The notes: generated by a model not told the origin, from the sequence alone. A DNA stretch of 64,000 nucleotides from Squalus acanthias (GCA_030390025.1 CM059430.1:76818001-76882000); one strand, 5' to 3'; shown: positions 1,909 to 62,133, counted from the first letter of the stretch. Translations and numbers: made by a program.

Positions 1909-2022
1909 CTTTACTTTTCTTTAATTGACATCGCTTCGCAATAATGAGAGCCACCATTAGAAATACCAGTCCAACCCATGCACATCTGGAAATCAGTAAG
2001 ACACGGGAGCTGTTGGCATGAT
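1909..2022 (-). CDS. Gene A transmembrane exon: DHANSSRVLLISRCAWVGLVFLMVALIIAKRCQLKKSK
   Basis: Acceptor aatattttag, donor G|gtaata, 114 nt, phase 1-1. ~22-aa hydrophobic helix containing Arg, followed by a basic stop-transfer segment. Confidence 0.85.
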
Positions 2023-2694
2023 CTAAAATATTAAAGTAAATTATATAAATATTAAGGATTTGTTCAAATTGGCACCCAACCACAACTATAAGTAATGGAT
2101 TCCTGTCTGAAAATTATTCTCAGCAAACACGTGGTCTGAAAAAACAGACATTTTAAATCAATCTTTGCCATTTTGTATTTTTTTCACGAAAGTCTAGTGT
2201 TATGAAAAACATATTTTCTCAAAACGAATTTTAACCTTGTTTCTTGTTGATAATAAGATTGCGACTGAAAGTGACAACGGTAATTTTTAACTTTGTACTG
2301 TGTCTAATAGCTGTTGATACAATTACAGTTTGCAGCAGATTGTGAGCACAGATTGTGGGACGCAGGAGGCAGCGATTCTGCAACAACCTGTCGGGTGGAG
2401 TTACAGCCCACTCTTGCCCCAAGAGTCAGTGCCACATCTGAGCCGTGACACCAGGACTGCAGGAGGAGCCTCCCAATAAGGCAGGAGACCACGAGCAGCA
2501 ATCGTAGAGCTCTTTGAACAGAATTAAACCTGATTAAAAGTGAACAAAGGCAAACAGGATTCCTACACTTTTATGGAAGTAAAACCTGGTGAAAGAGCCG
2601 GAGTAGAACAACGAGTGAGAAAGGACAGTTTGTTCAACCGGGAGAGTCGCAGCAACTGCTCTGTCTGCAGGATAACTGAGGTCTACAATCTTAC

Positions 2695-3003
2695 CTGTAG
2701 GGTTCCTGACAATGTGGGTGGCCGTGGCTGAAATTTTGAGGGTACTGTGAGACACCAGGCAGGTATAAACGGTTCCGGTCTCGACAGCCTTCGTCTCTTC
2801 CAACCGGCTGGAAGCTTCATATAGTCCATCGGTGTTGGGTTGATTAATGTTATTTATCCTTGTTGTAATTTTGGTGCCATCCTTATACCAGGTGAAGCTG
2901 ATATTCTGCGGATAAAAGGGAGATGCTGTGCACAGTACAGTCAGAAGCGCAGGTGAATCCTTTTCAGGTTTGATAGAGACAATTTTCAGTGGAGTTGGCG
3001 GAA
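2695..3003 (-). CDS. Gene A Ig C1-set exon
   Basis: LTVLC...[14 protein letters not shown]...[10 protein letters not shown]...YTCLVSH C1 motifs; acceptor ttttag, donor G|gtaag; 309 nt, phase 1-1. Confidence 0.93.
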
Positions 3004-3789
3004 CTAAAAAAGTGGAGGAAAAGAACGTTACTTCGACATCATTCAAGGTCATAAATCCATCGTTGCATTTATGACAGGACATTTTCGCTGTGCGCTATCA
3101 GTAGGGACACAGATAACGGCATCTTCTAAATCTAAACCTGATGTTCATGTTTCCCTCTTTATTTGTGGATAAATTGTGTCATGTACTATTACATTTGCTC
3201 TACATAATTTTCTGTTGTATTCTATTATTACTCAGTGCTAATTTTTCAGGTTTTTAACATCTTCACAACTTTAACAATCAGCACAAGGAAGTGTTGTTCT
3301 TCAATGTATCTGATCTAAATTCACAACATTAAAATACACCACAGGCCCTTTCCATAAGGGTAAGGAACACAGTCTGCTTCTCCCTCTATATGGCTCCTTG
3401 GATGAAGCAAATAATCTGATGTATGCAATTGAGAAAGTTTGCTGAAATTATATTCTGTACATTTAACCGGGGGTCTTACACTTTCGCCGATTTAAAACCT
3501 GGTTAAAGGCTGCAACAGGTGACAAAGTACGATTTTCCCAAGCGGGAGAGGCTTTAGGACTCAGGTTCTGGTCAACATTTTCCTTACTGGAGATTAGGAA
3601 GTTTATGAAAATATGGGGTTGGTGGTTCAGGACGCAGACAGAGCACAATAACTAACTGTTATTTACACCCGGATTTCAAGACTCTCAATATATGGATCAT
3701 TATATTATAAATCCGCCAATCTGTATTCCAAGAGTAAATGTCAGCCCTCACAAACCAAGACAGACAATGACGTACATTTGCATTATAAT

Positions 3790-4145
3790 CTTTGTTGATA
3801 TGCTAGCATAACAGCAGCCAATTCGCACACAGCAAGGCCCCACAGAGAGTTCTGAGGTAAATAATCAGATAATATGTTTCAGTAGTGTTGCTGAGCGATA
3901 AATATTGGCCAAAACTCCACTGCTCTTCCTGGAATAGTGTCATAGGATCTTTTGCGTCCTGAGAGGGCAGATGGTGTCTCGGTTTAAGGTCTCCACAGAC
4001 TGATGGAATCTCCGACAGTGCAGCACTCCCTCAGCACTGCACTGAAGTGTCAGCCTAGATTAAGTGCTCAAGTATCTGGAGTGAGATTTGAACCAAGGAC
4101 CTTCTGACTCCGAGGCAGGGTGACACCAGTGAGCCATGGGTGACA
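3790..4145 (-). mobile_element. tRNA-derived DeuSINE (SacSINE1-like); paralogue ~60335-60680
   Basis: Minus strand shows A/B-box-like head (ggctcactgg...ggttcaaatc) then ...gagggagtgctgcactgtcgga...ttaaaccgag Deu-type core. Confidence 0.75.
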
Positions 4146-4339
4146 TACTGGGGGAGATTTTCAACTTGCTGGCTTGGTGTCCCCTATTGGCCAGCCCTTA
4201 TAAAATCCTGGATTTTCATTTTCACTGATATGGGGCGGTTTCTATAACTGGTGGCCCAATCCTAACTCCAATTTTACTCTGGATTTGCAAATTGAATATC
4301 TACCCCATCAAAAAGAAGATGGCGGCAGATAAGCACCAA

Positions 4340-4524
4340 GGGGTAGATTTGATGTTGTACGATAGTGTAACACGGGTGATTGCAAGTCGACAGTCCGGTT
4401 TACATCTCTACCGATTTTTATTTCCATTGATGTCAATAGAGTGCAAAATCGGAAGAAATGGAAAACGGGCTGTAGATTCGCCATCACCCGAATTACATTC
4501 TCACACAAATTTAAAACCTACCCC
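4340..4524. mobile_element. Short hairpin MITE; relatives at ~1400-1545, ~4665-4790, 13545-13657, ~14117-14270 and in the duplicated copy
   Basis: Terminal inverted repeats ggggtagattt...aaacctacccc and a shared internal motif cgatagtgtaa. Confidence 0.6.
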
Positions 4525-4934
4525 AAGTAGATCATTGCAGCCGAGATACTTCTTGAGGGATGGATCCATTCTTCACATATACTGCAACTTTCAACTCTAC
4601 GAGTTTGTTATACAGATGGTGCTCTTAAATCTTACAATGAGTCTGTTAACATATTAAACACTAGTTGAACTTTTGGGGCCGATCGTTATACCGATATTTT
4701 ATTCCATTCACTTCAAAGGAAAAGACAATAGGGAGGGTGAATAACGAGCAGTCGCTCCGATATAGCGCGTTTTACACTATCCACAAAATTAAAACAACAA
4801 TCGATTTGTTTAATAATAGGGAAGTATTGAAATAATCATCTACATGTAACGCTATCAGTCTTCCGTGTAAGTACAATTTATATATATATAAAACAATTGG
4901 AATTTGAGTTGCAAAGTAAATCCATCAATGTATA

Positions 4935-6184
4935 GAAACATAGAAGATAGGAGCAGGAGTAGGCCATTGGGCCCCTCGAGCCTGTTCCGCCATTTAGTGA
5001 GATCATGGCTGATCATCCAAGTTCTGTACCCTGTCCCTGCTTTCTCCCCATATCACTTGATCCCTTTTGCCTTAATAAATATATCTAACTCATTCTTGAA
5101 TATATTTAATGAATTGGCCTCAACTGCCTTTTGTGGTAGAGAATTCCACAGGTTCACCACTCTGTGGGTGAAGAAATTCCTCCTCATCTCAGTTCTAAAT
5201 GGCTTACCCCTTATCCTTAGACTGTGACCCCTGGTTCTGGACTTCCCCGCCATCGGGAACATCCTTCCTGCATCTAGTCTGTCTAGTCCTGTTAGAATTT
5301 TATAAGTGTCAATGAGATCCTCTCTCATTCTTCTGAGCTCTAGCGAATATAATCCTAATCGACCCAATCTCTCTTCATACGTCATTCCTGCCATTCCAGG
5401 TTCCTGTCTGGTGAATCTTCGCTGCACTCCCTCCATGGCAAGAACATCCTTCCTCAGATAAGGCGACCAAAACTGCACACAATACTCAAGGTGTGGTCTC
5501 ACCAAGGCCCTGTACAACTGCAGCAAGACATCCTTGCTCCTGTACTCGAATCCTCTCGCTTTGAAGGCCAACATGCCATTTGCTTTCGTAAGCGCCTGCT
5601 GCACCTGCATGCTTACCTTCAGCGACTGGTGCACAAGGACACCCAGGTTTCATTGCACTTCCCCTTTTCCCAATCTATTGTCGTTCAGATAATAATCTGT
5701 CTTCCTCTTTTTGCCAACAAAGTGGATAACCTCGCATTTATCCACATTATACTGCATCTGCCATACATCTGCCCACTCACCCAACCTGTCCAAATCATAC
5801 TGGAGTTGCTCTGCATCCACCTCACAGCACACACTCCCACCCAGTTTTGTGTCATCTGCAAACTTAGAGATATTACATCTAGTTGCCTCGTCTAGATCAT
5901 TAATATATATTGTGAATAACGGGTTCTAGCACCGAACCCTGCGGTACCCCACTAGTCATTGCCTGCCACTCGGAAAAAGACCCGTTTATTCCAACTCTTT
6001 GCTTCCTGTCTGCCAACCAGTTCTCTATCCTAGTCAATACCTTACCCCCAATCCCATGTGCTTTAACTTTGCATGCTAATCTCTTATGCGGGACCTTATC
6101 GAAAGCCTTCTGAAAGTCCAAATACACCACATCCACTGGTTCTCCCTTATCTATTCGATCAGTTACATCCTCAAAAATTCCAGG
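4935..6184 (-). mobile_element. 5'-truncated CR1 LINE inserted in the V-C1 intron of gene A only
   Basis: RT motifs VYLDFQKAFDKVPH, GVPQGSVL, RPHLEYCVQFW. Absent from the paralogous site (~61468); flanked by 'ata' on both sides. Confidence 0.95.
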
Positions 6185-6319
6185 ATAACTGAACAATGCT
6201 GCGAACTGTGAAACAGTGTAGAATGCAAACAATTCCAAAGTATGATTGATCCGCTGGATATATTTGTAATAAAATAATGCAGTCACATGGATGTCATTCG
6301 CCGCTTCTTTTATACTTAC

Positions 6320-6640
6320 CCCAGACGGCTAAATTGGATCCCGTTCCGTTTCCAACTATTTTGCCACGATGGGCGACAGTACAATAATATACTCCCGAGT
6401 CCTGGACACTCACATTGATTATCTGAAGGAAGCCGCTGAATTTAGTTTTGGAGCCAGTTACTTTTCTGTTATCAGGTCCAGTGCTTAGATATTTTTTATC
6501 ACCCTGTTTCCACCAATATACGTTCACCCCTGGTCCGTCTTGAAAGAAGGGAATCGAGCAATGAAAGAAAACGCTTGTACCCGTGATTCCGCTCGCGCTT
6601 TCAGGGAGCTGAGTCACTTTGAGCGAAGTTTCGCAGAAGC
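6320..6640 (-). CDS. Gene A Ig V-set exon with germline-joined J-like segment
   Basis: VTQ-P..., FHC, VYWW, LQIINVSVQDSGVYYC, NGTGSNLAV (FGxGTxLxV register). Acceptor tttcccgatag, donor G|gtaag; 321 nt. Confidence 0.93.
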
Positions 6641-6811
6641 CTATCGGGAAAGAAAATCAAAACCGAATTATTGAGAATATTACAGGAGAAAAAGCGCGAG
6701 GGTAAGTGAGTCAGGCAATGTGTGCAAAGGACAATGAAACATTTTGTATTAAATGGAAGTTAAGCAACTCCACGTTTTAGCGAGAAAGCAATGTATAGAA
6801 ACAACAGGTAC

Positions 6812-6866
6812 CTGTGAACATGATCCCCAGAACAGAGAGACACTGAAGTACAGCACTCGCCAACAT
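6812..6866 (-). CDS. Gene A leader exon MLASAVLQCLSVLGIMFT(G)
   Basis: ATG at 6866, hydrophobic signal peptide, phase-1 donor G|gtacct, in frame with the V exon across a 171-nt intron. Confidence 0.85.
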
Positions 6867-6929
6867 TCTGAAACAATTGATCACTCGGAGCGACAGACCG
6901 TGAACTGGCTGATGGTTCGTAAGAACGTT

Positions 6930-12420: not shown

Positions 12421-12479
12421 TTTCTCCGCTATAAACCAGCCACCTCAGACTCAGCTGGGGTCACATCCTCACATCCTGC

Positions 12480-20420: not shown

Positions 20421-23400
20421 TGGCCGGAATTTTCTGGCATCCATGTGGGTGGGATGGAGGCTGGTCGGAAGTGAAAGTTAAAATAATTTGGAGCGGATCG
20501 GGAACCTGCCAACATTCCGCCCCCACGCGCCTTTCACTCGAATGCGTTTGCCAGCGCAGCCATTTCTGCCACCTCCAGCGTGATCCGACCACCAAACACA
20601 TCTTCCCCTCAGCTCCGCTTTCAGCATTCTGAAGGGACTGCTCCCTCCGCGATACCCTGGTGCACTACTGTATCAACCCCAACACCCCTTCCCATTTGCC
20701 TGGCATCTTCCCATGCAAGTGCAGGAGATGCAACACATGCCCTTTTACCTCCACACTTCCCACTATCCAGGGCCCCAAACACTCCTTCCAGGTAAAACAG
20801 CGATTTACCTGTACTTCTTCCAATTTAGTATACTGTATTCGCTGCTCCCAATGCGGTCTCCTCCACACTGGGGAGACCAAATGCAGATTGGGTGATCGCT
20901 TTGCAGAACACCTCCATTTAGTCTGTAAGGGTGACCCTGAGCTTCCGGTTGCCTGTCACTTTAATTTTCCGCTCCACTCCCACTCAGACCTCACCGTCCT
21001 CGGTGTCTTACACTGTTCCAATGAAGCTCAAGGTAAGCTCAAGGAACAGCACCTCATCTTTCGATTAGGCACTTTACAGCCTTCTAGACTCAACATAGAG
21101 TTCAACAATTTCAGACCATAACCTCTGCCCCTATCCTTTTTTCCCCATTTTTTTTCTCTCCCACATGGCAGCTGTCTTTCATTCTGCCAATGCCATTTAC
21201 ACTTCATCTAGAGCCATCTTTTGTTTCTTAACTTGTCCCCTTACCATCTCCTTTTGCCTTGCATCATCTCTTAAACTCTCTCAATGTCTCCTAATCTCTC
21301 CTGCCTTCCATCCTATCACAGACCTTCCCTTTTGTTCTTTCCTACGCTCCCCACTTTGCTTGACCCTGCACTTGCTTAAAAACCTGTTCCATCTGCAGCT
21401 TTTTCCAGTTCTGACAAAGGGTCATCGACCTGAAATGCTAACCATGTTTCTCTCTCCACAGATGCTGTCTGACCTGCTGAGTATTTCCAGCATTTCCTGT
21501 TTTTATTTCAGATTTCCAGCATCTGCAGTATTTGCTTTTGTACCTGAACAGCAGAGGTGGCCGAGCTAATTTACATAATTATTAGGCACATGTCAGACGT
21601 CTTTTTAACCCTAACTTTCCAATTTCACTGGATGACCAGAGGAATCACGAAGCTCGGGGACCAGGTCTGTGAACCTAAGGCTGAAGTTCATTGGCCATTG
21701 AAGGAACTCTTTAGTGCAAATCATGGAAAGCACAATAAATACTCCCACCTGACACCAGGTTACTTTCGTAAGGCAGGTACTGTTGCTAAGTGCATTGTCA
21801 TCACAGATTTAGCAAGTATTTTCAGCAAAGTCGAGATCTACTGTCTCCTCATTGGCAGAACCTATCACACCATTGGCAGATTGCTTCTTTCATCTCTACT
21901 TGACCTGCCATCTATTACATCAGCATAGTGCCATTCATAGTGTCTCACCTTGGTCTCAGAATCGGACCACAATGAATCCCAACACCAGCAGTACAAGACA
22001 CACCAGCAGTACTGACAACAACACCACCAACCTTCTCCTCAACCACCTGATGCTCCACAGGACAGAGGGCATCAGCGCAGGGCTGCACCGCGCTGGAGGC
22101 GATACCCCCAACACAGGGTATACAGGCAGAGGATGAGCTTCCTCAACATGACTGAACAGCAGTGCCAAAGGAGGCTTAGGCTATCACGCCATGTCGTCTC
22201 AGACATTTGCAGAGTGCTGGAGCAAGACATGCAGCCCAGAGGAGCAGCGCAGACATGCCTTACCAGTGGCTGTCAAAGTTACCAGCACTCTCAAATTCTT
22301 CACTTCAGGCTCCTTCCAGGGAACTGCAGCAGACATTTGTGGCATCTTGCAGTCGGCCGCACACAGATGCATCACAACAGGTCACCGATGCCCTGTTTGA
22401 CAAGTCTGCCAATTATATCAACTTTGCCACTGATGAAGCCAGTGTTACTGGAGCAGGCGATCGCCTTTGTTGCTCTGGCTGGCTTCCCACGGTTGCAGGG
22501 CGTTATCGACTGCACACATGTGGCCATCAGGAGACCCCATCATCACCCAGGAATCTTTATCAACCACAAGGGCATCCACTCCCTCAATGTGCAGCTGGTC
22601 TGCAACCAAACGAAGATCATCATGCATGTGTGCGCCAAATTCCCTGGCAGCTGCCATGATTCATTCGTCCTGCACCAGTCCACCCTCCCTCAGCTCTTCG
22701 CACCTCCAAACATATTTTCCGGCTGGCTGCTTGGAGACAAGGGCTATCTACTGAAGACGTAGCTCATGACACCTTCAGGAGGCCAAGTACTGAGGCTGAG
22801 GAGAGATATAATGAAAGCCACATTTCCACAAGGTTTGTCAAAAAACACCCAAATGCTGACCCTTGTGCATCTACTTGTGTTTTACCTTTCTCTTATGCTT
22901 GCTTCCACGAGGTGCTAACCTTCTGGCTTCAGCAGAGGTAGATGCAGCATTCTCACTGCATAGACACTTTCGGCAGACGTCCTCTGGGTCTTGGAGCCTG
23001 TGATGGCCCTGCCAATGTCTGCACCTCCTGCGACTGTGCAGGGGCAGATTCGGCCATCGTGATTCCAGGAGACATGTGGGGCTCTGACTGAGGGAAGGCA
23101 AACGGGGAAAAGTGTGAGCGCTTTGAGAGGAGCCCCCACTTCCATGTCCCCTCTCACCGTCATCCCTCTCATGGGCCTCCAGCACGTCCCTGCCAGCAAG
23201 GAAGTAGAGAGCACCTTGCTGCACATAAATGGGTCCACGAGGACCCATGCCAACATTTACAACCCTCCTAGAGAGGAGGTCTATGAGCGTCTGCCATCTA
23301 TTCTCCATAGATAGCCATCTATTCTCCATAGATCCTATGTACTCATCTGAGTGACACATTAGCTGCTCCCTGCAGGTGACCATCTTTTCCATCGAAGAGC

Positions 23401-23824
23401 ATACAGTCACCATCGCCTGTGACACAGTGGTGATCATGTTAGAGATGGACTCCTCCATTCTCTGCATATTTGCAGATATCGCGGTCGCAAAACCTGTCAA
23501 AGCCTCCTGCACTTCTTGCTGCACCTCCAGGATCGCCCTCTTTCTGGATGGCCCCCGAGGCTCAGCGTCTGCATGCAGCTGAGCAGAGCTGAGAGCGTCC
23601 TGCACCCACCGGCGAGGAGTCTTCAATCTGATTGGTTGAAGAGACGCACTGTTAATTGTCCTGTTCACACATGCGACAGATCCCCTGTAGAGGGTGCGGC
23701 GCTGAAAATGATCTCCAGCAACCATAAATTGCCGATCAAAAGCCCACGAAACATCTGTGCGCAACTGTAACGGTAATGAATGGTGAGCGCTGTTCTGTCA
23801 CCGCTGACCGCAAACTTCAGGCCA
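20421..23824. mobile_element. Degenerate Harbinger transposon: transposase (+, ~21930-22840) and convergent second ORF (-, 22871-~23700)
   Basis: [43 protein letters not shown] (HARBI1-type DDE); frameshifts. Second ORF resembles the 46130-46980 ORF. Ends tggccggaatttt / aaacttcaggcca are approximate. Confidence 0.85.
20560..21545 (+). mobile_element. Penelope-like retroelement 3' fragment (GIY-YIG endonuclease) nested in the Harbinger end
   Basis: CNTC...FTCTSSNLVYCIRCSQCGLLHTGETK...RFAEH...VACHFN...GTLQPSRLN; characteristic tail. Confidence 0.9.
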
Positions 23825-24607
23825 TTACTGAATTGGTAAACTCGATGAAAAGGCGCAAGGATGATCGGTATAGGATATGCCAATTTCATACTTGTGCCTG
23901 GTGATTTAGTGAGGCATATTTTGGGATAACATAGAGGGGGTTTGACTCCCCCATCGCTATCTGCCCCACTAAGGCATGAATCTAACATGGGTAGCATAAA
24001 TAGACAAATTATTTTCATTACCCAGCACTTTTGTGCTTAACTTGAAAAACAAAAGCTTTATTTTGGGAGCGCTAAATATATTAAAGAATTAATTCATGAC
24101 AGACTAAATTAAATATTACTAACAATGAATAAGACACCAACTTTGACATTGAGAGGAGATCGCTAAAATAATTCGGTACCGTTTGCTATGATTACATTTT
24201 ACATTTTAATAGTTGTCTCCCTGGACAGGGAGTCATGAAAACACATCATAATGTTGATGTAAACACTGGAAACATTACAATTAAGGAGAATTAAACAGCA
24301 TAAAGATCAGCATCTGAAAGAGGAAGCTCGGATGGAACGCCTCATCGGAGCAGTGATGTCAGATCGTATTGTGGTTTTCTACTATTTTCTGTTTTAATTT
24401 AAGTTTAACAAAACTATCGGGTTGGTGTGTATTTTTCACATATTTAACAATAATAGATAAGGCCAGCACGGTCCAGTGAAATGTTACATCCGCCAGTGGC
24501 ATCATTTCGCTCTTCTGTTAGATGAGCAAAGATTCTTTCCTTATTGTTTCGCCTGTTCCTCTGCTTACACTTTTCGTTCTCTTTAGGTTTCCGTCTTTGA
24601 TTACAAC

Positions 24608-24652
24608 TTATGCCATCTGCAGCAGTCTATTTTCTACCGTCCCTTCCGTGGT
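24608..24652 (-). CDS. Candidate terminal cytoplasmic exon of gene B (TTEGTVENRLLQMA*)
   Basis: Acceptor cgattttacag; phase 0 matches the upstream 30059 donor; unique sequence. No transcript support. Confidence 0.3.
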   Translation of the reverse strand, partial: TTEGTVENRLLQMA

Positions 24653-24939
24653 CTGTAAAATCGAAGCGATTTCCCGTTAGCTCATGACCTTAATTAGTCA
24701 GCAGAGTGCTGGATGAAACAGAGTGCGATCGGCTGTAGCTAAATTGAAGATTCACGAATATGTCAGTTGAATAATGAATATATCACTATCAGTGTATCAT
24801 TATTGAAATTGCACAATTTTTCTGCTTGTACAGACGCGTAAAAAAAAAACCATTACAATCCTTCGAATTCAACTAATTCCTAGAAACTGAAAAGCAGTAT
24901 GAATCTCCTCTACACTCAGTGAGCAACTGCATTGTGCAT

Positions 24940-27175
24940 TACTCTGTATCTAACCCGTGCTGTTCCTGCCCTGGGAGTGTTTGATGGGGCAGTGTAGAGG
25001 GAGCTTTACTCTGCATCAAACCCGTGCTGTACCGACTCTGGGATTGTTTGATGGGACAGTGTAGAGGGAGCTTTACTCTGTATCTAACCCCGTGCTATTC
25101 CTGCCCTGGGAGTGTTTGATGGGACAGTGTAGAGGGAGCTTTAATCTGTATCTAACCCGTGCAGTTCCTGCCCTGGGAGTGTTTGATGGGGAAGTGTAGA
25201 GGGGGCTTTACTGTGTATCTAACCCCGTGCTGTACCTGCCCTGGGAGTGTTTGATGGGACAGTGTAGAGGGAGCTTTGCCCTGTATCTAACCCCGTGCTA
25301 TTCCTGCCCTGGGAGTGTTTGATGGGACAGTGTAGAGGGAGCTTTACTCTGTATCTAACCCGTGCTATTCCGACCCTGGGAGAGTTTGATGGGAGTGTGT
25401 AGAGGGAGCTTTAGTCTGTATCTAACCCCGTGCTATTCCAGCCCTGGGAGTGTTTGATGGGACAGTGTAGAGGGAGCTTTATTCTGTATTAAACCCCGTG
25501 CTATTCCTGCCCTGGGAGTGTTTGATGGGACAGTATAGAGGGAGATTTACTCTGTATCTAACCCGTGCTATTCCTACCCTGGGAGCATTTGTTGGGAGAG
25601 TGTAGAGGGAGCTTTACCCTGTATCTAACCCCGTGCTATTCCTGCCCTGGGAGTGTTTGATGGGACAGTGTAGAGGGAGCTTTAATCTGTATCAAACCCG
25701 TGCTGTTCCTGCCCTGGGAGTGTTTGATGGGACAGTGTAGTGGGGGCATTAATCTGTATCTTATCCGTGCTATTCCTACCCTGGGAGTGTTTGATGGGAC
25801 AGTGTAGAGTGGGCTTTACTCTGTATCTAACCCGTGCTGTTCCTCCCCTGGGAGTGTTTGATGGGACAGTGTAGTGGGGGCATTAATCTGTATCTTATCC
25901 ATGCTATTCCTACCCTGGGAGTGTTTGATGGGACAGTGTAGAGTGGGCTTTACTCTGTATCTAACCTGTGCTATTCCTGCCCTGGGAGTGTTTGATGGGG
26001 CAGTGTAGAGGGAGCTTTGCTCTGTATCTAACCCCGTGCTATTCCTACCCTGGGAGTGTTTGATGGGCCAGTGTAGAGGGAGCTTTACTCTGTATCTAAC
26101 CCGTGCTGTTCCTCCCCTGGGAGTGTTTGATGGGACAGTGTAGAGGGAGCTTTGCTCTGTATCCAACCCCGTGCTATTCCTACCCTGGGAGTGTTTGATG
26201 GGCCAGTGTAGAGGGAGCTTTACTCTGTATCTAACCCGTGCTATTCCTACCCTGGGAGTGTTTGATGGGACAGTGTAGAGGGAGCTTTACTCTGTATCTA
26301 ACCCCGTGCTATTTCTGCCCTGGGAGTGTTTGATGAACAGTGTAGAGGGGGCTTTACTCTGTATCTCATCCATGCTATTCCTACCCTGGGAGTGTTTGAT
26401 GGGACAGTGTAGAGGGGGCTTTACTCTGTATCTAACCCGTGCTGTTCCTGCCCTGGGAGTGTTTGATGGGAAAGTGTAGAGGGAGCTTATACTCTAACTA
26501 ACCCCGTGCTATTCCTACCCTGGGAGTGTTTGATGGGACAGTGTAGAGGTAGCTTTACTCTGCATCTAACCCGTGCTGTTCCTGCCCTGGGAGTGTTTGA
26601 TGGGACAGTGTAGAGGGAGCTTTAATCTGTATCTAACCCGTGCTGTACCTACTCTGGGATTGTTTGATGGGACAGTGTATAGGGAGCTTTACTCTGTATC
26701 TAACCCCGTGCTATTCCTGCCCTGGGAGTGTTTGATGGGACAGTGTAGAGGGAACTTTACTCTGTATCTAACCCGTGCTGTTCCTCCCCTGGGAGTGTTT
26801 GATGGGACAGTGTAGAGGGAGCTTTACTCTGTATCTAACCCCGTGCTTTTCCTACCCTGGGAGTGTTTGATGGGACAGTGTAGAGGGGGCTTTAATCTGT
26901 ATCTAACCCGTGCTGTTCCTGCCCTGGGAGTGTTTGATGGGACAGTGTAGAGCGAGCTTTGCTCTGTATCTAACCCCGTGCTATTCCTACCCTGGAAGTG
27001 TTTGATGGGGCAGTGTAGAGGGAGCTTTACTCTGTATCTAACCCGTGCTGTTCCTGCCCTGGGAGTGTTTGATGGGACAGTGTGGAGGGAGCTTTACTCT
27101 CTATCTAACCCGTGCTGTTCCTGCCCTGGGAGTGTTTGATGGGACAGTGTGGAGGGAGCTTTATTCTGTATCTAT
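24940..27175. repeat. Minisatellite, ~36 copies of a 61-62 bp unit
   Basis: Unit ttactctgtatctaaccc(c)gtgct(a/g)ttcctgccctgggagtgtttgatgggacagtgtagagggagct in head-to-tail array. Confidence 0.97.
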
Positions 27176-27866: not shown

Positions 27867-29730
27867 GGGCAAAAATTCGCGTCCGCCACGAGAGTTGGCG
27901 GTGTGACTGGCAACTCGGGTTAATGGCCGCTGAAAATTGACGGAGCGCTACCAGGGGAAAATTCACGCTGGGGGCAAAATGTTTTTTACCGTGTAACGCT
28001 CTCCTGGTGGCGGTAGTGCAGCGTTGCAGCTTCCAACAGCCTCTGGAAATGAGGCTACGGAGTTCGCTAGGAACTGTGGGAAATTAAAAGGGCAATGTAT
28101 TAAATAAACTAATGAAAATTAAAATGAAGTGAAAAAAATGAGTTTGCAGCTCTTCCTGCCTTCCTAAAAATAGTGAACATTAAAAAGAAATTCCAAATGG
28201 GAGTCTTCAGCACTTAAAGCTGAATTCCGTTCCGCACCTCAAAAAATGGGAAAAGTGCTTCAGCATTAACACAAGTGTATCAGCCTTAGGTAAGGGTCTC
28301 CCAGCGTCTCACATGCAGCACTCCACCTTTGTGCAGGGTGTCAACACTGCATGAGAGTTCCTTTACCCACAGGGGCCAGGAGGCCCTCCAGAAATGGGAG
28401 CACATCACCCAGGTGTTCACTGCCAGCAGTGTCGCCCCCACCATCTGTCCAAAATGCCCAAAGAAACCTCAGCACCACAGACCACTGGCCAAGGTCAGTG
28501 AATACATGTTCAAAAGCCATCTCCTACCAACTGCAGCACTAGCCTCACACACGGCTCAAAGTATGAATCCGCCCCCCCCCCCCCCCCCATCACTCACCTA
28601 CCAACAATCTGTACAAATCATGAGGGACATCTCCCATTCCTAGCCACATCTCAGCCCATTGGAGGAGACAGTGAAGGCCGTTCTTGGCAGGGGCCCTTGG
28701 TCAGCGGTGGGGCTGATAGGATACAAGATGCTGGTATATTCATACGTTAGCCTCCTTCTGGCATGCACCTCTTGCTTTCCCGCGATCCCCTCACCACAAC
28801 TCCACCCTTGTGCCTTCCTCATTTCACACACACAAGAAATGCAGCCTTCCCAGCCTGTGGTTGGCCAAGATGAGAGAGAGGAGAATGAAGAAGAATAAGA
28901 AGAAACACTATCACTGGATTTCACACTGCCAGCCACCACCTCCTCAAGGTGGACCAGCAAGGCCATTTGCAGTGTCCCTCACTTCCACCAGTCATGCTAC
29001 AACCACTGAGGTGCAACTGCATGACATCAGTAGGATGAGCAAGGGCACACACATGGCAGTCACTAAGGGAATGCATAAGGGTGATGAGTTGATTTCTTGA
29101 TGCCATATTGGATGGATAGATGTATAAAGTTGGATTGGAAGGTTTGTTTTGTGGTGGCTTTTATTTCAGCATTGTGGCCAAGCAGACGCTGTGATGGTCA
29201 TTAACAGAGGGAAGGTAAGGTGTGGGACTAATGTTGAAACGGGAATTGGGGCTGTGGTCACTGGGACCGTAGGCAGATGATCCCGGCCAGAAATGGGCTG
29301 TCTGGGATGCATCCTTCCTTCTGCACTCCTTACACACTTAAACAATCTTTTAACATGTATTGCAGCAAACCACTAATACAGTAAAATCAACAAATCCAGT
29401 CCAGAAGCTTAAATGCAAACTTACCTGAAAGATGTGTGTATCCCTTTAAGAGGTACTGACAGCGCCTCTGTGAGTCTGCTTGCAGGCTGGATTTACATGC
29501 AGAGCTTAGGACCCAACACTGACTCAGTGCAAATGTCCAAGTTCGCGGTGGTAAAGGTAACTCGGCGTTGCAAGCAGACTGACATCACTGCTCCGTCATT
29601 TTAATTTGGAGGGCGATGCATCTTACCGGCAGCGCTGCTGGGCCCACCACCTGCTGGCGAAAGAGCGGCTGCCGACCTCCTCACGGTTTTTTGACGGTAA
29701 CGGGTGGCTAAAAGCCCCCGAATTTTTGCA
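27867..29730. mobile_element. Non-autonomous Harbinger-derived element with TIRs
   Basis: gggcaaaaattcg ... cgaatttttgca inverted ends; internal Myb/SANT-like remnant; homologous to 55760-57752. Confidence 0.7.
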
Positions 29731-30058: not shown

Positions 30059-30102
30059 CCGTTCTTCCACATGGCGAGGCCCCTCTTCGTTTCCGTGGGC
30101 GC
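30059..30102 (-). CDS. Gene B short cytoplasmic exon (G)AHGNEEGPRHVEER
   Basis: Acceptor tgtatttcactag, donor CGG|gtgcgt, 44 nt, phase 1-0, open and in frame with the TM exon. Confidence 0.6.
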
Positions 30103-30518: not shown

Positions 30519-30635
30519 CTTTACAGTTACTGAGTTGGCAACTGCTCCCAAGGACGGTGATGAGGGCGAGAAATATCAGTACACTCCCTGTACATCCAAC
30601 AATCAGTAGGTAAAGGGATGTGTGTCCATAAACCT
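30519..30635 (-). CDS. Gene B transmembrane exon EVYGHTSLYLLIVGCTGSVLIFLALITVLGSSCQLSNCK
   Basis: Acceptor gattctag, donor G|gtaag, 117 nt; aligns with the A/C TM exon (LLI..C....L.FL...CQL...KG). Confidence 0.87.
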
Positions 30636-31105: not shown

Positions 31106-31414
31106 CTGGGTTAGAACTGGAATCAAAGTAAACAGCCACGGCTGGACTCTGCAGTGTGAGGTGAGACACCACACAGGTATATACAGCCCCGCTCTGGGCT
31201 GGCTGTGTCGTTTCCAATCTGCTGGAAGCTTCATACATTCCCTCCGAATTCAGCTTTTTAATGGTGTTGATCCCACTCACAATGTTGGTGTCATTTTTAT
31301 ACCAAGTGAAGGTGAGAGCCTCCGGGTAGAACTCGGCCGTTTCACACACAAGTGTTAGAGTAGATGGGTTGGTTCCGGACACTTTGGGGACCAGTCTCAC
31401 GGGTTCTGGGGAAG
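31106..31414 (-). CDS. Gene B Ig C1-set exon
   Basis: LTLVC...FYPEALTFTWYKN...[11 protein letters not shown]...YTCVVSH; 309 nt, same length as A/C; acceptor ttccacag, donor G|gtaag. Confidence 0.93.
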
Positions 31415-36115: not shown

Positions 36116-36161
36116 CTTCGTAAATAATCCCCAAGGCCCATATGTACTGACACACAAACAT
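36116..36161 (-). CDS. Gene B leader exon MFVCQYIWALGIIYE(V)
   Basis: ATG at 36161, phase-1 donor G|gtattt, 200-nt intron; Q....LGI pattern shared with the A/C leader. Confidence 0.7.
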
Positions 36162-44559: not shown

Positions 44560-47500
44560 GGAAGTTCACTGCATGCGCGCTGCCTCTCTGGCGTACGCGT
44601 GGATCCAGTGCAGGAAAAGATTCAATGATCTCATGAGTTCAGGAAGGGTGAGTTCAATGCCACACTCACACTCACCTTCACTCTGATGTGCCTGTCACCA
44701 TATCCGCATCACTCTGGCTTCCCAAGCCTACTCCTGCACATCATTCCTCACACCAAACAACCTTGCAGGTCCACCCATCCCTCTCTGTCTATGTACATAC
44801 TCACATCCCTATCTGACTAACCACCCTGACACTCACCCTTTGGCAATGTAATGCCACTCACTCATAGATACCCACTACAGATGTAGCCCATTCATTCCTT
44901 GCACTCATTGCATCACTCTCACTCAAAGTTCTATTCTTTCCCTCCTTGCAGGAGAAGAGAGTCCATAACAATAGTGAGAGTATAGTGATAGACTTCAAGA
45001 GGACATAGACAGGCTGGTGGAATGGGCGGACATGTGGCAGATGAAATTTAACGCAGAAAATTGCGAAGTAATACATTTTGGTAGGAAGAACGAGGAGAGG
45101 CAATATAAACTAAAGGGTACAATTCTAAAAAGGCAGCAGGAACAGAGAGTCCTGGGGGTATATGTGCACAAATCGTTGAAGGTGGCAGGGCAGGTTGAGA
45201 AAGCAGTTAAAAAACATACGAGATCCTGGGCTTTATAAATAGAGGCAAAGAGTACAAAAGCAAGGAAGTGATGATGAAACACTGGTTCGGCCTCAACTGG
45301 AGTATTGTGTTCAGTTCTGGGCACCGCACTTTAGGAAGGATGTGAAGGCCTTAGAGAGAGTGCAGAAAAGATTTACAAGAATGGTTCCAGAAATGAGGGA
45401 CTTCAGTTACGTGAATAGACTGGGGAAGCTCGGGTTGTTCTTCTTAGGTTGAGAGGAGATTTGATAGAGGTATTCAAAATCATAAGGGGTCAAGACAGAG
45501 TAGTAGAGAAAAACTGTTCCCATTGGCGGAAGGGACGAGAACCAGAGGACACAGTTTTAAGTTGATTGGCAGAAGAACCAAAGGGGACATGAGGAAAAAC
45601 TTTTTACGCAGCGAGTGGTTATGATCTGGAATGCAATGCCTGGAAGGCTGGTGGAGGAAAATTTAATCGTGGCTTTCAAAAGGGAGTTGGATAAATACCT
45701 GAAGGAAAAAAAATGCAGGGCTACGGGGAAAGGGCGGGGGAGTGGGACGAGCTGAAGTGCTCTTGCAGAGAGCCGGCACGGGCTCAATGGGCTGAATGGC
45801 CTCCTTCTGTGCTGTAACCATTCTATGATTCTATGATTTTATGAGGCAGAGAAGCGGAGGTGGCCCTCCAATATTCATTCAATTGACTCCAGCAGAGGAG
45901 GAGTCCCTGGAGATCTCTCGAGTTGAAGAGCTGCTGGCGGTGTGAGATGGAGAGAGGGAGACATCCCAGCAATCCGGTGACTGAATTACATCCAATACAG
46001 TGACATGGCATACAGCAGTCATTGATATGGTGACTGATGTCAGTAGCCAGTGAAATATCATCATGTGCATAATGGCAACTTTACCTATTCTTATCATAAC
46101 ACCTTTAATTCACTCTTTACTCTCCCACAGGTCTCCCACTGTCCAACCGGAGGAGGAAGATGACTCCTCAGAGGAAGCTCCAGCATCTGAGGGTGCACCG
46201 TCAGCAGACCCAAGCGTAGCCAGCACCAGCGCAGATATACAAACCTTGGTGAGTCCTGTGCGAGATAGAGTAGTGTTGTCAGCTGGTGTCTCACAATTCA
46301 CAAGTGAGCAAAAGCAGCTGGTGTTGACAGGGACAGCAGTGGAGTCTCCTCGCCGGAGGGTGCAGGATGCTCCAAGCTCTGCTGAGCTGGATGCAGATGC
46401 TGAACCTTGGGGGCCATCGAGAAAGAGGGTGATCTCAGAGGGGCAGCAACAATTGCATGAGGCTCTGGCAGCTTTTGCAGCCGCGGTGTATGCAAATGTC
46501 CAGAGAATGGAGGAGTCCATCTCCAACATGAGCACCACCATGTCTCAACCGATGGCGATGATGTGCTGTTCCATGGAAAGGGCGGCCACCTGCACGGCAC
46601 AGCAAATGTTCCAGTCACACGAGCACGTGCTCGCTGTGGGCAACAGAGGGCAGAGGCTCATAGACCTCCTCTCAAGGAGGGATATAAATGTAGACTTGAG
46701 CGTTCATCGCCCCACTGCTGTGCAGCACAATGCTCTCCAGCTCCTTGCTAGTAGGGAAGTGTGGGTGTCCCATAAAAGGGATGATGGTGAGATGGGACAT
46801 GGAAGTGGGAGCTCTCCTCAAAGTGCTCCCACTTCTCCCCGTTGCCTCCCCCTCACTCTGGGCCCCACATGCTGCCTCGGATCCCGATGGCCGATTCTGC
46901 CCCTGCCAGGTGCAGGAGGAGCAGTGTATGGCGGGGACCTCACTGGCTCCAAGACCCAGAGGACGTCCGCCAAAAGTGTCTAACCAGTCGCAGCAGGGAA
47001 ATGAGCAGCCTGCCTCCACCTCTGCTGAAACCAGAGGGGTTGCACCTCATAGAAGCACTCGGAAAAGTATAAAGACACAATCCTAGATGCATAACGGTAT
47101 GCACATGGGTCTATGAAAAAATGTTAGTGCTAAGTTTTAGTTTTTTTAATGCACAAACGTATTTTTTGCACCACTTTCCGGTCTTGTCCATTTTTGCCTG
47201 CTACCTTGGAAGTGGCTTTGTCACTTCGAGTGAATGGTGAGGCATTACTTAACCTCGAGCAATGGGGGTTTGGGTGACAGGAATGGCTTGGTCTTTGTAG
47301 GGATGCTTTATGGTGTTGTTGATGAGGGGGAATTAGTACAGAATGTGGCAGCCACATGGGTACATTGGAGCAATTTAAGTAAATCTGGTCATGATGAGAC
47401 CATCCCAGGCCTCCCGGGCAGCAATGTGCGCCGCTGCTGGTGCCATCTCCTCCTCAAGTTCCTCCACCTCCTCCTCCTCGTCTTCCACCTGCTCCTACTC

Positions 47501-49152
47501 CTCCTCCTCTGAAGAGGCTGTGCGCTCTGTGCCTTGCTCCTTCTGCAGCTCCAGCCCTCGCTGCTGTGCTATGTGGTGCAGCACACAGCAACCAACGATG
47601 ATTCTGGAGACCCTGGCTGCTGTGTACTGAAGGGCTCCTCCACATCTGTCAAGGTAACTGAAGCGCATCTTCCACATGCCTATTGCTTGCTCTATGACAC
47701 ATCTTGTGGACATGTGGCTCTCATTATAACACTCCTGGGCCTCAGTATTTGGCCTCCTCAAGGGTGTCATGGCCCACGTCTTCAGTGGATAGCCCTTGTC
47801 TCCAAGCAGCCAGCCAGTAAGTCTGTTTGGTTGTGCGAAGAGCTGAGGGAGGGTGGACTGTTGTAGCACAAAAGAATCATGACAGCTGCCAGGGAATCTG
47901 GCGCACACATGCATGATGATCTTTTTATGATTGTAGACGAGCCGCACATTGAGGGACTGGAAGCCCTTGCGGTTGACAAAGACTCCTAGGTGATGATGTG
48001 GTGCCCTGAAGGCCACATGTGTGCAATCCATGATGCCCTGCACCTGTGGGAAGCCAGCCAGTGCCGCAAAGCCGAGCACCTGCTCAGTAACACTAGCTTC
48101 ATCAGTGGCAAAGTTGATATAATTGGTTGACTTGTGAAACATGCCATCATTCACCTGGGTGATGCATCTGTGGGCTGCCGACTGCGAGATCCTCCAAATG
48201 TCTGCTGCACATCCCTAGAAGGAGGCTGAGGCGAAGAAGTTGAGGGCGGTGGTGACTTTGACAGCCACTGGTAAGGCACGTCCACCAGGTCTTCTGGGCA
48301 GCAGGTTTTGTTCCAGCAAGCTACAGAAGTCTGCAATGACCTAGCGTGATAGCCTGAGCCTTCTGAAGCACTGCTGCTCAGTCATGTCCAGGAAGCTCAT
48401 ACTCTGCGTCTATATCCTGTGTTGGCGGCATCGCCTCCGGCTTGGTGCAGCCCTGTGCTGACCGCCTCCTGTGCAGCATCAGGATGGCGAGGAGAAGGCT
48501 GGTGTTGTGGTTGCTGCTGCTGCTGCTGGTGTTGTGGTTGCTGCTGCTGCTGGTGTTGTTGGTGCTGGGGCTCATCTTGTTCCGATTCTGAGGTCCAAGG
48601 TGAGACAGCATAAGTGGCACCCATGCTGATGTAATAGATGGCAGGTAAAGCGGAGATGAGTGGCCCAATCCCTCAATGATAGTGACTAGCAATGTGGTGG
48701 GAGTGGATTCCGAGATTGCAGAAATGACCTGCAAACTGCTGGCAGCTAAATCTCTGCACAACATGGAGTCAGCAAGAGCGTTTCCATTAGCCAAGTAATG
48801 AGGTGCAATGTGTTTTTCCAGGCTCTCAATTAATGGACTGGCACAAAGGCCACTGAGCTTCCACCTCCCCTTCACAGGCGAGGTTACCGAGGTGCATGAA
48901 ACCCATGCTCCTGAAGTTAAAGCCAAAAGCTGCTGTTAAAAACACACTTAAGGGTCTCTCATCAAGCATTTAAGTACTTAAATGAGGTCGCCCGCCTCTC
49001 CCGAGCGGGTCTGTGGCGCACCTCCAAACGCACCCGAGTTAAATGCAGAAGTCGACAGGATGACGGCGGGTTGCCAACACGCTGTCAATTTGCGTGAGTT
49101 TAACTGCTGATCCGCCCCCAAACCCTCACGCTTAGAACGGTATCATTCTGGC
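44560..49152. mobile_element. Degenerate autonomous-type Harbinger: spliced Myb/SANT gene (+) and transposase (-, ~47390-48625)
   Basis: WIQCRKRFNDL followed by a gtgagt donor. Transposase [48 protein letters not shown]; in-frame stops. Confidence 0.9.
44975..45838 (+). mobile_element. CR1 3' fragment nested in the Harbinger Myb gene
   Basis: WADMWQMKFNAENCEVIHFG; (ttctatga)n tail. Confidence 0.9.
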
Positions 49153-55000: not shown

Positions 55001-55157
55001 TTCTGCTTCCTACTAGTTTTGCTGACTATTTTCTAACTTGCACTTCCAGCTTTGTTTCTATCTGTTCTGGGCCCACACTTAGGTTCCCATCCCCCTGACA
55101 AACTAGTTTAAATCCTTCCCAACAGCACTTGCAAACCCCCCTGTGAGGATATTGGTC
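52040..55157 (-). mobile_element. CR1 LINE: end of ORF1 plus entire but disrupted ORF2; same subfamily as 8059-10910
   Basis: EN and RT motifs; ORF1 C-terminus-like LHL...GTNIL...LN* at ~55100-55157. Confidence 0.95.
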
Positions 55158-55759
55158 CCGGTTCTGCCGAGGTGTAACAAAATGGCTGCAGAATGTAGAC
55201 AAATCTATAGTCCCCGTGGGACATGGGGTGGAGGGTGCGGAGAGATCAGTTTCTGACCGCCTGGTTCTCTTTATTGAGATCTTTGATATTTACGGTTTTT
55301 GGAAAACGAACTCTTCTCATGGAGATGAGTATGGAGTGTTGTCAGCAGATACTGATGTTCTCAAATGAAAGATAAGGTCAGGGAGCAGGGCAGCGCCAAG
55401 TTTGAAAAGAAGAGGAGATGAATAGGAAAACAATAACCTTATGATGCCAAGCTTGGGTTTTAAATCTGCAGTTTCTGAAATATTTTATTGTGCAGTTGAT
55501 GTTGCACGAGCTGAAGGAACCAAACAATAGCAACAAATCCAGTTTCACAATCAGGATATTACAATATTTATGAACAACATTATTACACAATTTGAACAAC
55601 ATTATTACACAATTTAAACAACTGGTTCTAAAAGATTTATGGGTAAGCATTGGTGTTAGGCAACCTCCTTTCTCGTCTTGTTCACAACAACACGTTTAGA
55701 GTAAGCACAAAACTTCTGCTCAGGCATTCAAATCAAGTTCCCGTCCAGGAGCAGCATTC

Positions 55760-57752
55760 CAGATTCTCCGAGCATCTGGAAGCGAGGCAATAGAGCTCGC
55801 TAGGCATTGAGGGAAACTAAAAGGGCAATGCCTTCTGAACTAATACAAATAAAAATTAAGTGAAAAAATGCAGTTTTTAGCCCTCATTGCCTTAAACAAA
55901 AAGTCCCAGATGGGAGTCTCAAGCTCTTAAAGCTGAATTCCCTTCCGAAACTCCAAAAATGGGAAAAGAGCTTCAGCACTAACACAAATGGCTCAGCAAG
56001 CCCAGGGTCTCACACGCAGCATTCCAGCTATTTTCAGGGGGGCAACACTGCATGAGAGGTTGTCTACCCACAGGAGCCAGGAGGCCCTCCAGAAAGAAGA
56101 ATGTGGGACCAGATCACCGAGGCCGTCACTGCCAGCAGTGTTGCCCCCACCATCTGGCTCCAGTGCCGAAAGAAGTTCATAACATCAGACCACTGGTCAC
56201 GATCAGTGAATGCATCTTCAAAAGTCGTCTCCTACCAACTGCATCACCAGCATCACACACTTCTCAAAGCAAAACTCCCCCCCCCCCCACCAATCACTCA
56301 CCTACCAACAATCTGTACCAATCACGAGGCACTTCTCTCATTCCTACCCTCACCTCACTCCTTGGAGGAGACAGTGCAAGCCACTCTTAACAGAGGCATG
56401 GCTGAGCCCCTGGCCAATGGCGGGGCAGAAAGGATACAAAGTGCTGGTATCCGCATATGTTATCCTTCTTCTGGCATGCACCTCTTGCATTCCCTCCCTC
56501 CAACCAACACAAATCTACCCTTGTGCCTTCTTCATTTCACACAACAAAGAAATGCAGCTTGCTCAGCCAATGGTTGGCCAAGAAGAGGGAGAGGAGAGTG
56601 AAGTAGAAGAACAAAAAGGAAAACCGTCACTTGATTTGACACACCCAGCCACCAGCTCCTCAAGGGTGACCAGCAAGGCCATCTGAGGTGTTCCTCATTG
56701 AAATTCAGCAGCCTTCCACCAGCCATGTTGCAGCCGCTGGGGTAGCACTGCGTGACATCAGTAGGATACGCAAAGGCACACACAAGTTAGTCACTAAGAG
56801 AATACATAAGGTTGATGTGGCGATGTCTTGATGTCACATTGGATGGATAGATGTACATATAGGTGGATTGGAAAGTTTGCTTCGTGGCGGCTTTTATTTC
56901 AGCATCGTGGCCAAGTGGACGCCGTAATGGTCAATAACAGATGGAAGGTAACATGTGGGACTGATGTTGATGGGATAATTGGGGTTGTGGTCACTGGTAC
57001 CACAGGCGGATGATTCCATCCTGGATATCCTGTCCAGAAAGGAGCTGTTTCGGATTCATCCTTCCGTCTGCTTCCTTCTCTTTGGCTTCCTCCTTTTCGG
57101 CTTCCTTCTCTTCGATTTCTTCCTCTGCTGTTTCTTCCTCTCCTGCGTCTTCCTCTTCCCTTGGCGAGCGGATGCTGTAGATCTAAAATGACACCATAAA
57201 ATGCTGGAAATACTCAGCAGATCAGGCAGCATCTTGACCTGAGACGTGAACTCTGTTACTCTCTCCACGGATGTTGCCTGACCTGCAGAGCATTTTCAGC
57301 ATTTTCTTTCTTCTCAGAGGTCCTGCAATCGTCCAGCAGCACTCCCTACACAGTTAAAAAAACTTTTAACATGTATCGCAGTAAACCATTACTTCAATAA
57401 ATTCAAAGATCAAAGTCCAAAAGCTTAAATGCAAACTTACCTGAAAGATGTAGTGGTCCCTTTAAGAGTTGCTGACAGCGCCACTGTCAATCTGCTGCAC
57501 ACTAGGTTTACCTCGAAGCTTAGGATCCAGCGCTGAACTCAGCACTAAGTTCCAAGTTCGCCGTGCTGACGTTAAGTCGGAGATGTCACCTCTCCCTCAT
57601 TTTAATTTGCAGGGAGTTGGATCTTACCGGCGGCACCGTCGGGCCTGGGAAAATGGAGGACGCCACGGGCCCCGACACCAGCTGGCGAAGGAGCGGCAGC
57701 CGCCCACTTTACGCAACCTTTTGCGGGTAATGGGTGATGTTAAGCCCCCGAA
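55760..57752. mobile_element. Non-autonomous Harbinger-derived element
   Basis: WDQITEAV...WLQCRKKF Myb/SANT remnant (+); acidic transposase tail (-); TIR-like right end. Confidence 0.7.
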
Positions 57753-58457
57753 TTTTAAGCCCATGAGTTGAGTGTAATAGTAACACATCGCTGTTCTGTT
57801 CCTGTGACTGAATACCAGCCCCTTGAACTGTCCAGTTACCCAAATAAACTCCCCTCTGCACCAACTTTTGAAAATTGCGACTGTTTCGTCAGAGCAGAGA
57901 AGATTATGGGGTCATTAGATGTGTTTACAATTATGAATGATAGGATAGGTGGGATAGACGTAATTTTGGCGGTAGTGTAAAAGCGACGATATGAGATTGT
58001 TTGCTCATTATACACCTCGCCCGATTTTGCTTTCAAATGAAGGAAAATCGGGCTGAACCAATATCGCCAATTTTAAACCATCGCCAAAATTACCCCAGAC
58101 TGTTTCCAGTGATTGAAGGGTCTAGAACGAGCCAAGACAGATATAGGATTGAATGTAAGAGAGGAGGAGAAACCTGTTTGCACAGAGGGTTGTGAAGATG
58201 TGGAATGCACTACCGAAGTTAATAGATGAATCAGAGACCAAGCCAATATTTAAGAATAGGTTGGCTGGGTGGTGGAAGGAAATGAAGATAAATGAAGCGG
58301 GTGGCCACATGGGATTAGATACTGCTGGAGGATAAGCACTGTTTAGGCCGATAGGCCCGCTTCGTGTTGCAATTTCTATCTAATTCTATGCAATCTGCTG
58401 GTAATCTTTATTAAATTCTTTTCCAGAACTTTTTTAAATAAAAAAAATATTTATTAC

Positions 58458-58571
58458 CTTTACTTTTCTTTAATTGACATCGCTTCGCAATAATGAGAGC
58501 CACCATTAGAAATACCAGTCCAACCAATGCACATCTGGAAATCAGTAAGACACGGGAGCTGTTGGCAAGAT
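58458..58571 (-). CDS. Gene C transmembrane exon DLANSSRVLLISRCALVGLVFLMVALIIAKRCQLKKSK
   Basis: Same splice sites as gene A; 114 nt. Confidence 0.85.
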
Positions 58572-62078: not shown

Positions 62079-62133
62079 CTGTGAACATGATCCCCAGAAC
62101 AGAGAGGCACTGAAGTACAGCACTCGCCAACAT
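62079..62133 (-). CDS. Gene C leader exon MLASAVLQCLSVLGIMFT(G)
   Basis: Peptide identical to the gene A leader; phase-1 donor. Confidence 0.85.

Follow-up and report, generated by a model that had tools for sequence, protein, structure and literature searches.

Putative activating and inhibitory forms of a VJ-C1 receptor lineage, with a companion gene, in Squalus acanthias

We have analysed a 64,000-nucleotide stretch of Squalus acanthias DNA (GCA_030390025.1 CM059430.1:76818001-76882000; hereafter the window, with whole-genome coordinates given as G000:C6). Its minus strand carries three non-rearranging genes, A, B and C, each composed of a leader exon, a single exon joining variable and joining segments (VJ), a C1-set exon and a transmembrane (TM) exon, all in phase 1. 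From sequence comparison, we consider it probable that A and C are activating members of a receptor family coupled to FcR-gamma or CD3-zeta, that paralogues of A bearing immunoreceptor tyrosine-based inhibitory motifs (ITIMs) are their inhibitory mates, and that B is a companion unable to signal alone.

The TM exons of A, B and C are genuine phase-1 exons with AG/GT splice sites, and the minus strand carries the three TM peptides at the limits proposed in an earlier note on this DNA. A and C share 35 of 37 TM residues, and A and B share 12 of 37 (67 of 114 nucleotides ungapped). Over the 32 residues quoted in the earlier note, A and C align with B without gaps, and the codon AGA (Arg) at 1985-1987 in A and 58534-58536 in C faces GGA (Gly) at 30595-30597 in B; the codons and the alignment thus bear out the claim of an Arg six residues into the helix in A and C and of a Gly in B. 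The TM prediction agrees: the most hydrophobic stretch of 21 residues starts at Val and has the Arg as its sixth residue, both on the Kyte-Doolittle scale and on a rough insertion-energy scale; the placement of the Arg in the helix is a hydropathy prediction. In the helix of A and C only 16 apolar residues lie C-terminal of the Arg, and the Arg site aligns with an Ala inside the helix of uncharged A paralogues. The helix of B is free of charge, and its proposed adaptor independence holds as a prediction. The earlier note had called these TM exons otherwise homologous. Their similarity exceeds chance, since the local A-B alignment score was equalled by none of 5000 shuffles, but it is loose: A-B identity is 32% for TM, 39% for V (37-39% between B and either A or C) and 46% for C1. 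In the V-C1 tree, each of A and B represents a lineage of its own that occurs in sharks as well as rays, so the Arg/Gly difference is not a switch between sister copies. The exons of the three genes are as follows.

6812..6866, minus strand: leader exon of gene A (ATG, phase 1 donor), matching the N-terminus of RefSeq relatives
6320..6640, minus strand: single-exon VJ of gene A with a J-like NGTGS motif (Pfam V-set, 5.5e-10)
2695..3003, minus strand: C1-set exon of gene A (Pfam C1-set, 1.2e-14)
1909..2022, minus strand: TM exon of gene A with the Arg codon, from splice sites and alignment
36116..36161, minus strand: leader exon of gene B, matching the N-terminus of P0002
35604..35915, minus strand: single-exon VJ of gene B, from exon structure and Pfam domain match
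31106..31414, minus strand: C1-set exon of gene B, from exon structure and Pfam domain match
30519..30635, minus strand: TM exon of gene B with the Gly codon and an uncharged helix, from alignment and hydropathy
30059..30102, minus strand: cytoplasmic exon 1 of gene B, Tyr-free, 44 nt long, running from phase 1 to 0 and found in 13 of 13 B copies
24608..24652, minus strand: terminal coding exon of gene B, ending ENRLLQMA-stop, no Tyr (P0002 ends ENRLL)
62079..62133, minus strand: leader exon of gene C, from exon annotation
61591..61911, minus strand: VJ exon of gene C, 86% identical in amino acids to A, from exon structure and Pfam domain match
59247..59555, minus strand: C1 exon of gene C, 84% identical in amino acids to A, from exon structure and Pfam domain match
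58458..58571, minus strand: TM exon of gene C with the Arg codon, from splice sites and alignment

Across the genome, these genes recur in cassettes of fixed order. The V exon of B gave 120 matches, of which the 13 with at least 70% identity were taken as B-type, and the surroundings of all 13 were fetched. In every one the immediate upstream neighbour, 18-46 kb away and in the same orientation, is an A-type gene, and this holds in both cassette lineages. One cassette, on the unplaced contig C3675 (G000:C3675:35001-75000), matches C6:68.06-68.09 Mb with 98-99% identity along 30 kb; it is probably an uncollapsed allele, leaving 12 cassettes.

The A genes of these cassettes are of two kinds. On the one hand, 6 of the 13, A and C included, have an ISRC helix and no ITIM exons. 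On the other hand, the A helix is uncharged (ISASAGGGL-type) in the other 7, which have three tail exons with ITIMs or immunoreceptor tyrosine-based switch motifs (ITSMs) of the VTYAAL/APYAAL type, TVYAQV, LTYAAL and TEYAQL; among these seven, V is interrupted by a stop in one gene and the middle tail exon is frameshifted in another. When the ITIM exon was searched genome-wide, the 7 of 60 matches with 85-100% identity all fell in uncharged cassettes and none in Arg cassettes, and no ITIM exon for A, B or C was found in the window and 150 kb of flanking DNA. V exons are 90-95% identical in DNA across the two kinds, and the contrast between true counterparts is Arg/Ala, not Arg/Gly. The tail of the Arg lineage has at most two small exons, with Ser where a horn-shark remnant has Tyr. 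The Arg-type copy at G000:C6:75.565 Mb retains both of them. Gene A keeps a Tyr-free remnant tail exon just outside the window (beginning at G000:C6:76817117) and has its first tail exon deleted; downstream of the TM exon of gene C both are missing, and read-through gives a 15-residue basic tail. The idea of an activating A/C set opposed to an inhibitory B is therefore supported in its first half, as Arg occurs without ITIMs in 6/6 and an uncharged helix with ITIMs in 7/7, but the pairing with B does not.

The similarity between the two kinds of A gene is limited to particular exons. Gene C is 87-91% identical to inhibitory genes over leader plus V and C1 only, with 69-73% in the TM exon and unalignable introns, whereas its introns align with those of Arg-type genes at 90-92%. 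Synonymous divergence (dS) between the Arg and ITIM kinds is 0.12 in V, 0.18 in C1 and 0.51 in TM; broken copies and the likely allelic R11 were excluded from the sets used for nonsynonymous and synonymous rates (dN/dS), and the B tree is without B_R8. One Arg copy and one ITIM copy are nearly identical in V and C1 (tree support 100/99). In a V-C1 tree of 42 rows, with 8 proteins excluded by a motif filter, the forms with Arg and those with ITIMs sort by species or order and not by TM type. Gene conversion would keep the V and C1 exons of both kinds alike, and we therefore propose that both see the same ligand. In Xenopus CEACAMs, such an exon-restricted pattern of paired receptors is ascribed to gene conversion (PMC5112662, in extract).

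The named close full-length relatives are all from sharks, rays and chimaera. In horn shark P0018 (ISRCAW) and stingray P0035 (ISRCVW), which have short tails, the helix carries an Arg at this position too, and the A-lineage relatives without Arg mostly bear ITIMs. This distribution suggests that the coupling of a non-rearranging VJ-C1 chain to zeta or gamma through Arg may be as old as the shark-ray split.

LILRA and PIR-A couple to FcR-gamma or zeta through an N-proximal TM Arg. In the Squalus acanthias genome, 2 of 52 candidate matches are zeta/FcR-gamma-type adaptor TM exons, each bearing Cys and Asp, and the Arg near the top of the A helix would pair with the two Asp of a zeta or gamma dimer. 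For TCR-alpha (of the T-cell receptor, TCR) and CD89, an Arg near the helix top together with two Asp is described as binding zeta or FcR-gamma dimers (PMC13107469, in extract). The earlier note had taken such coupling as established for NKp30, NKp46 and LILRA; in the extract of PMC13107469, it is assumed for NKp30 and NKp46, and LILRA is unmentioned. Macaque activating KIR provide a further precedent for Arg-coupled activating receptors (PMC8102735, in extract). Inhibitory A genes would recruit phosphatases through their ITIM/ITSM motifs. Considering the segregation of ITIMs, the Arg in two other species and the Asp-bearing adaptor exons, the claim that A and C are activating has strong comparative support. 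Expression data, from 3 runs of one study whose RNA status was guessed, counted neither way: one 137-nt contig matched an Arg TM exon with 2 differences and broke off 2 nt beyond the acceptor, as expected of a spliced product, with no joint listed, and other contigs ran into introns.

The A lineage thus has, within one cluster, closely related ectodomains attached to opposing signalling parts, homogenisation of the ectodomain exons compared with introns and TM, and, by prediction, an Arg in the upper helix with an Asp-bearing adaptor encoded, which are the marks of paired receptors. As in CD89, NKp30, NKp46 and KIR, the Arg lies in the top half of the helix above a short tail, with uncharged ITIM twins in the cluster; the homogenised ectodomain exons recall Xenopus CEACAMs (PMC5112662, in extract). 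In contrast to mammalian paired receptors, the shark ectodomain is an antigen-receptor-like VJ plus C1, and a signalling-null companion follows each gene.

As for B, the earlier note had offered an inhibitory receptor, a decoy or a partner chain, of which the latter two remain. We give an even chance to B being an independent non-signalling receptor or decoy. Its tail, of about 38 residues over two exons, is Tyr-free and has the C-terminus ENRLLQMA, and the sevengill-shark P0002 terminates in ENRLL; poly(A)-signal-like hexamers lie near 24398 and 24210, beyond the terminal exon. Most B copies, like P0002, retain the ENRLL C-terminus, which is possibly a sorting signal but not a canonical dileucine motif. 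In the V-C1 tree, the B lineage is found in sharks and sawfish.

An obligate partner chain, which is possible with somewhat lower probability, would be compatible with the assignment of A and C and would extend it: A and B would form a germline-encoded VJ-C1/VJ-C1 heterodimer of TCR-like shape, in which A supplies the activating or inhibitory signal and B none. The constant position of B behind A favours this, as does the presence of both lineages in sharks and rays. Moreover, B is broken in each of the 3 cassettes whose A ectodomain is broken, a further one has only B broken and 8 have neither (n=12, one-sided p 0.018), and between lineages B V and C1 have diverged less (dS 0.17 and 0.11) than a B intron has (0.24). 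Fixed order and joint breakage suggest a partner chain like CD94, as far as gene arrangement can indicate. However, block duplication alone yields co-occurrence, and it is demonstrated here because a third gene, head-to-head upstream of inhibitory cassettes, co-duplicates; cassettes can also decay whole without protein contact. The J motif has an Asn in an N-glycan sequon (NGT) where immunoglobulin (Ig) and TCR have the V-V interface Phe/Trp, as mapped by motif. The stalks are without Cys, and inhibitory A has Ser in place of the TM Cys common to B and Arg-type A. The B V is as variable as the A V (dN/dS 0.58 versus 0.61), unlike an invariant chain. The logic proposed for B resembles that of CD94/NKG2, namely a motif-less chain beside activating or inhibitory partners, and CD94 plays no part in TM assembly (PMC13107469, in extract). 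CD94/NKG2, though, are of lectin fold and type II, use Lys and DAP12, and have one CD94 gene, whereas B has 13 variable copies and its dimer is hypothetical. With the two-chain TCR and Ig, the shark genes share leader-V-C1-TM chains with phase-1 exons; they differ in having N-G-T-G in place of the Phe/Trp-G-x-G J motif and no stalk (hinge) Cys, on the same motif-based mapping. A Tyr/Pro difference in the B helix between cassette kinds was considered as a TCR-beta-like contact and dropped, being out of register with the Arg. The fullest form of the idea, that cartilaginous fish keep a germline TCR-shaped two-chain receptor, with A as the signalling chain (Arg or ITIM) and B as its partner, duplicated as a cassette, is rather doubtful.

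Several observations weigh against the assignment of A and C as activating members beside a silent B. The six Arg TM exons are 95-98% identical and form one lineage; they therefore arose once and were then duplicated, so that the Fisher test on a 6-versus-6 table of Arg and ITIM (p 0.002) overstates the association, as it reflects one event and not twelve. The support for the Arg group in the TM tree is only 58/17, from a short alignment that included one misframed row, inhR5. Two of the six Arg copies are broken by frameshifts, and with the tail exons lost from C (both) and from A (the first), A or C may be defective. Charged residues also appear elsewhere: B_R3a and B_R6 have AGA in place of GGA at the aligned helix site; Leu has become Arg in the helices of inhR10, B_R6, B_R8 and B_R10, and Ser has become Arg in inhR11; the Mustelus B-type P0026 has Lys at the Arg site; and the ITIM-bearing Mobula P0216 has Arg nearby. 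A single Arg alone is therefore weak evidence. The relative P0038 combines a short tail with Gly. Within four Arg TM exons, dN/dS exceeds 1 on very few changes, and purifying selection within the species is not evident. In addition, each of the 7 B genes in inhibitory cassettes has a single juxtamembrane Tyr encoded by its TM exon, though outside any ITIM context. The B-type copies with a gained Arg lie at G000:C6:75716763-75716879 (L005) and 75528591-75528701 (L016), and B_R3a is otherwise intact.

The stray Arg changes, the many lesions across the cluster, the tail-less gene C and the lack of a purifying-selection sign among Arg TM exons would all fit a branch in decay, in which the Arg is a tolerated substitution in a tail-less offshoot of an inhibitory family and A and C are non-signalling or dead. 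We consider this improbable, since the ISRC(A/V)W helix occurs in three species spanning sharks and rays, the AGA codon is kept in all six Arg copies, V and C1 are open in four of them, and their ectodomain exons have been homogenised with the inhibitory counterparts. That B is the inhibitory member paired with A and C, as its uncharged helix and its place adjoining both would allow, is by far the least probable reading, and an inhibitory role of any kind is hardly credible for B: its cytoplasmic exons are Tyr-free in 13 of 13 copies (the tails of B_R2 and B_R3b were mis-cut in extraction, their donors being mutated), so B is not an ITIM inhibitor, no ITIM exon turned up for B in the window and flanks, ITIMs are absent from the B relatives P0002, P0004, P0015, P0026, P0028 and P0031, its V is distant from that of A and C, and B also accompanies A genes that are already inhibitory.

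We compared the probable activating and inhibitory A genes and their companion with known systems. In the SIRP family, SIRP-alpha bears ITIMs, SIRP-beta is charged and SIRP-gamma is signalling-null; the ectodomain is V-C1-C1, SIRP-beta1 uses a central Lys with DAP12, and the genes are syntenic with NSFL1C. The shark genes resemble this family in the joined VJ plus C1 and in the ITIM/ITSM tail, and B is like SIRP-gamma in having no motifs. They differ in having one C1, not two, in A, B and C, and an Arg at helix position 6 with no central Lys. SEP-domain (NSFL1C-type) exons lie on C8 and C11 and not on C6, with paralogues not told apart, and a single UQCRFS1-type exon lies on C6 at 34 Mb. When full-length P0018 was searched against PDB, UrIg2 was the top match (5.7e-18) and SIRP-alpha the second (6.6e-16); SIRP-alpha was also the top feature match in Atlas, where the matches were generic V/C1 clusters. 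The V profile found neither NKp30 nor SIRP among 60 PDB matches, and NKp30 was also absent from the 47 matches of one PDB list and from the best 60 of 2138 of another. An AlphaFold model of P0016 (pLDDT 62.8) matched only Fab chains at TM 0.4 and was uninformative beyond V-C1. Membership of SIRP is not supported, given the single C1, the missing central Lys and the absence of SIRP from the V-profile matches. With NCR3/NKp30, the genes share a single-exon VJ and a TM Arg near the top. Human NKp30 has one Ig domain and a short stalk (PMC12272517, in extract), whereas all three shark genes have V and C1, and this membership is not supported either, given the extra C1 domain and the absence of NKp30 from the PDB match lists. 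These comparisons suggest that the cluster works like a paired system of the SIRP or LILR type, with support for membership of neither SIRP nor NKp30.

PRARP is a non-rearranging gene with a germline-joined VJ followed by C1. The same arrangement likens the shark genes to UrIg and UrIg2 (PMC12227049, PMC10751288, in extract). They differ from UrIg2 in forming a multigene V-C1-TM cluster with activating and inhibitory forms, not V-C1-C2-C3, and in that no linkage to the major histocompatibility complex (MHC) was seen: none of 50 MHC class I exon matches was on C6, and many were on unplaced scaffolds. Known joined-VJ genes are listed in PMC11599192 and PMC10751288, whose extracts name no such shark cluster. 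RefSeq annotates these genes inconsistently, as light chain-like, SIRP-like, tapasin-like or B7-H6-like. The literature searched contained no account of the cluster; key shark NCR3 papers (Kinlein 2021; also Flajnik 2012, 2023, Ohta 2015, 2019, Fu 2019) lay outside that scope and may cover it. Kinlein et al. 2021 reportedly describe a shark NCR3 family, and A, B and C possibly overlap with its subtypes; accessions MT914154-61 for nurse-shark NCR3 are given in PMC12227049.

To our knowledge, shark receptors of the natural killer (NK) type are poorly known. The present cluster holds more than 100 antigen-receptor-like V exons, shows distinct forms of activating and inhibitory type and has relatives among rays and chimaera; it gives concrete genes with which such receptors can be tested. 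If B is a partner chain, it would link paired innate receptors to TCR architecture, and the two-chain receptor, if real, would offer a living model for heterodimeric antigen receptors that predate RAG, as well as a candidate shark NK receptor system. If B is not a partner, the genes would form a sound but conventional paired-receptor family.

At least 112 distinct related V exons lie on C6 between 57.5 and 76.9 Mb, and at least 42 of them have an ITIM-type exon before the next V, both figures being lower bounds. Genes A, B and C lie at the edge of this cluster, and the 80 kb to the right of the window yielded no additional family members. About 10 kb downstream of three Arg-type genes, we observed orphan, decayed, uncharged A-type TM exons (G000:C6:76808190-76808340 (L041), 75579923-75580074 and 75631350-75631501), which are likely relics of an inhibitory gene deleted inside the Arg cassette.

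Other members of the cluster show similar contrasts. Gene X (G000:C6:68143449-68154885, 75352782-75368757 and 75468882-75479787; L103-L106, L114-L115) lies head-to-head upstream of inhibitory A cassettes and has an Arg near the helix top, Asp-His near the bottom and a tiny tail; its type of Arg helix also occurs in chimaera P0039. Gene W (G000:C6:67431597-67438738; L113) has an uncharged helix and ITIMs. The V domains of both match one horn-shark protein at about 80-85%, and X and W are likely a second activating/inhibitory pair. In another subfamily (L013-L015; G000:C6:67782877, 61873014 and 62197995), a conserved Arg stands three positions higher (YLRIFGC), with a truncated ITIM exon. Turtle multi-V proteins (P0061, P0071, P0080 and P0202-P0209) have an NG(T/S)G(T/S) J motif and occur in Arg/short-tail and uncharged/ITIM forms, by which the receptor family may extend to reptiles.

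The window is also rich in repeats. A 67-bp tandem satellite of 33 copies occupies 24939-27174, within the last intron of gene B. Repeated decayed elements with transposase-like open reading frames, which we take to be Harbinger-like, lie in introns and between genes at 21809-23625, 28018-29726, 46340-48735, 55751-57756 and 1-1207, and many LINE-like reverse-transcriptase fragments are scattered through the window.

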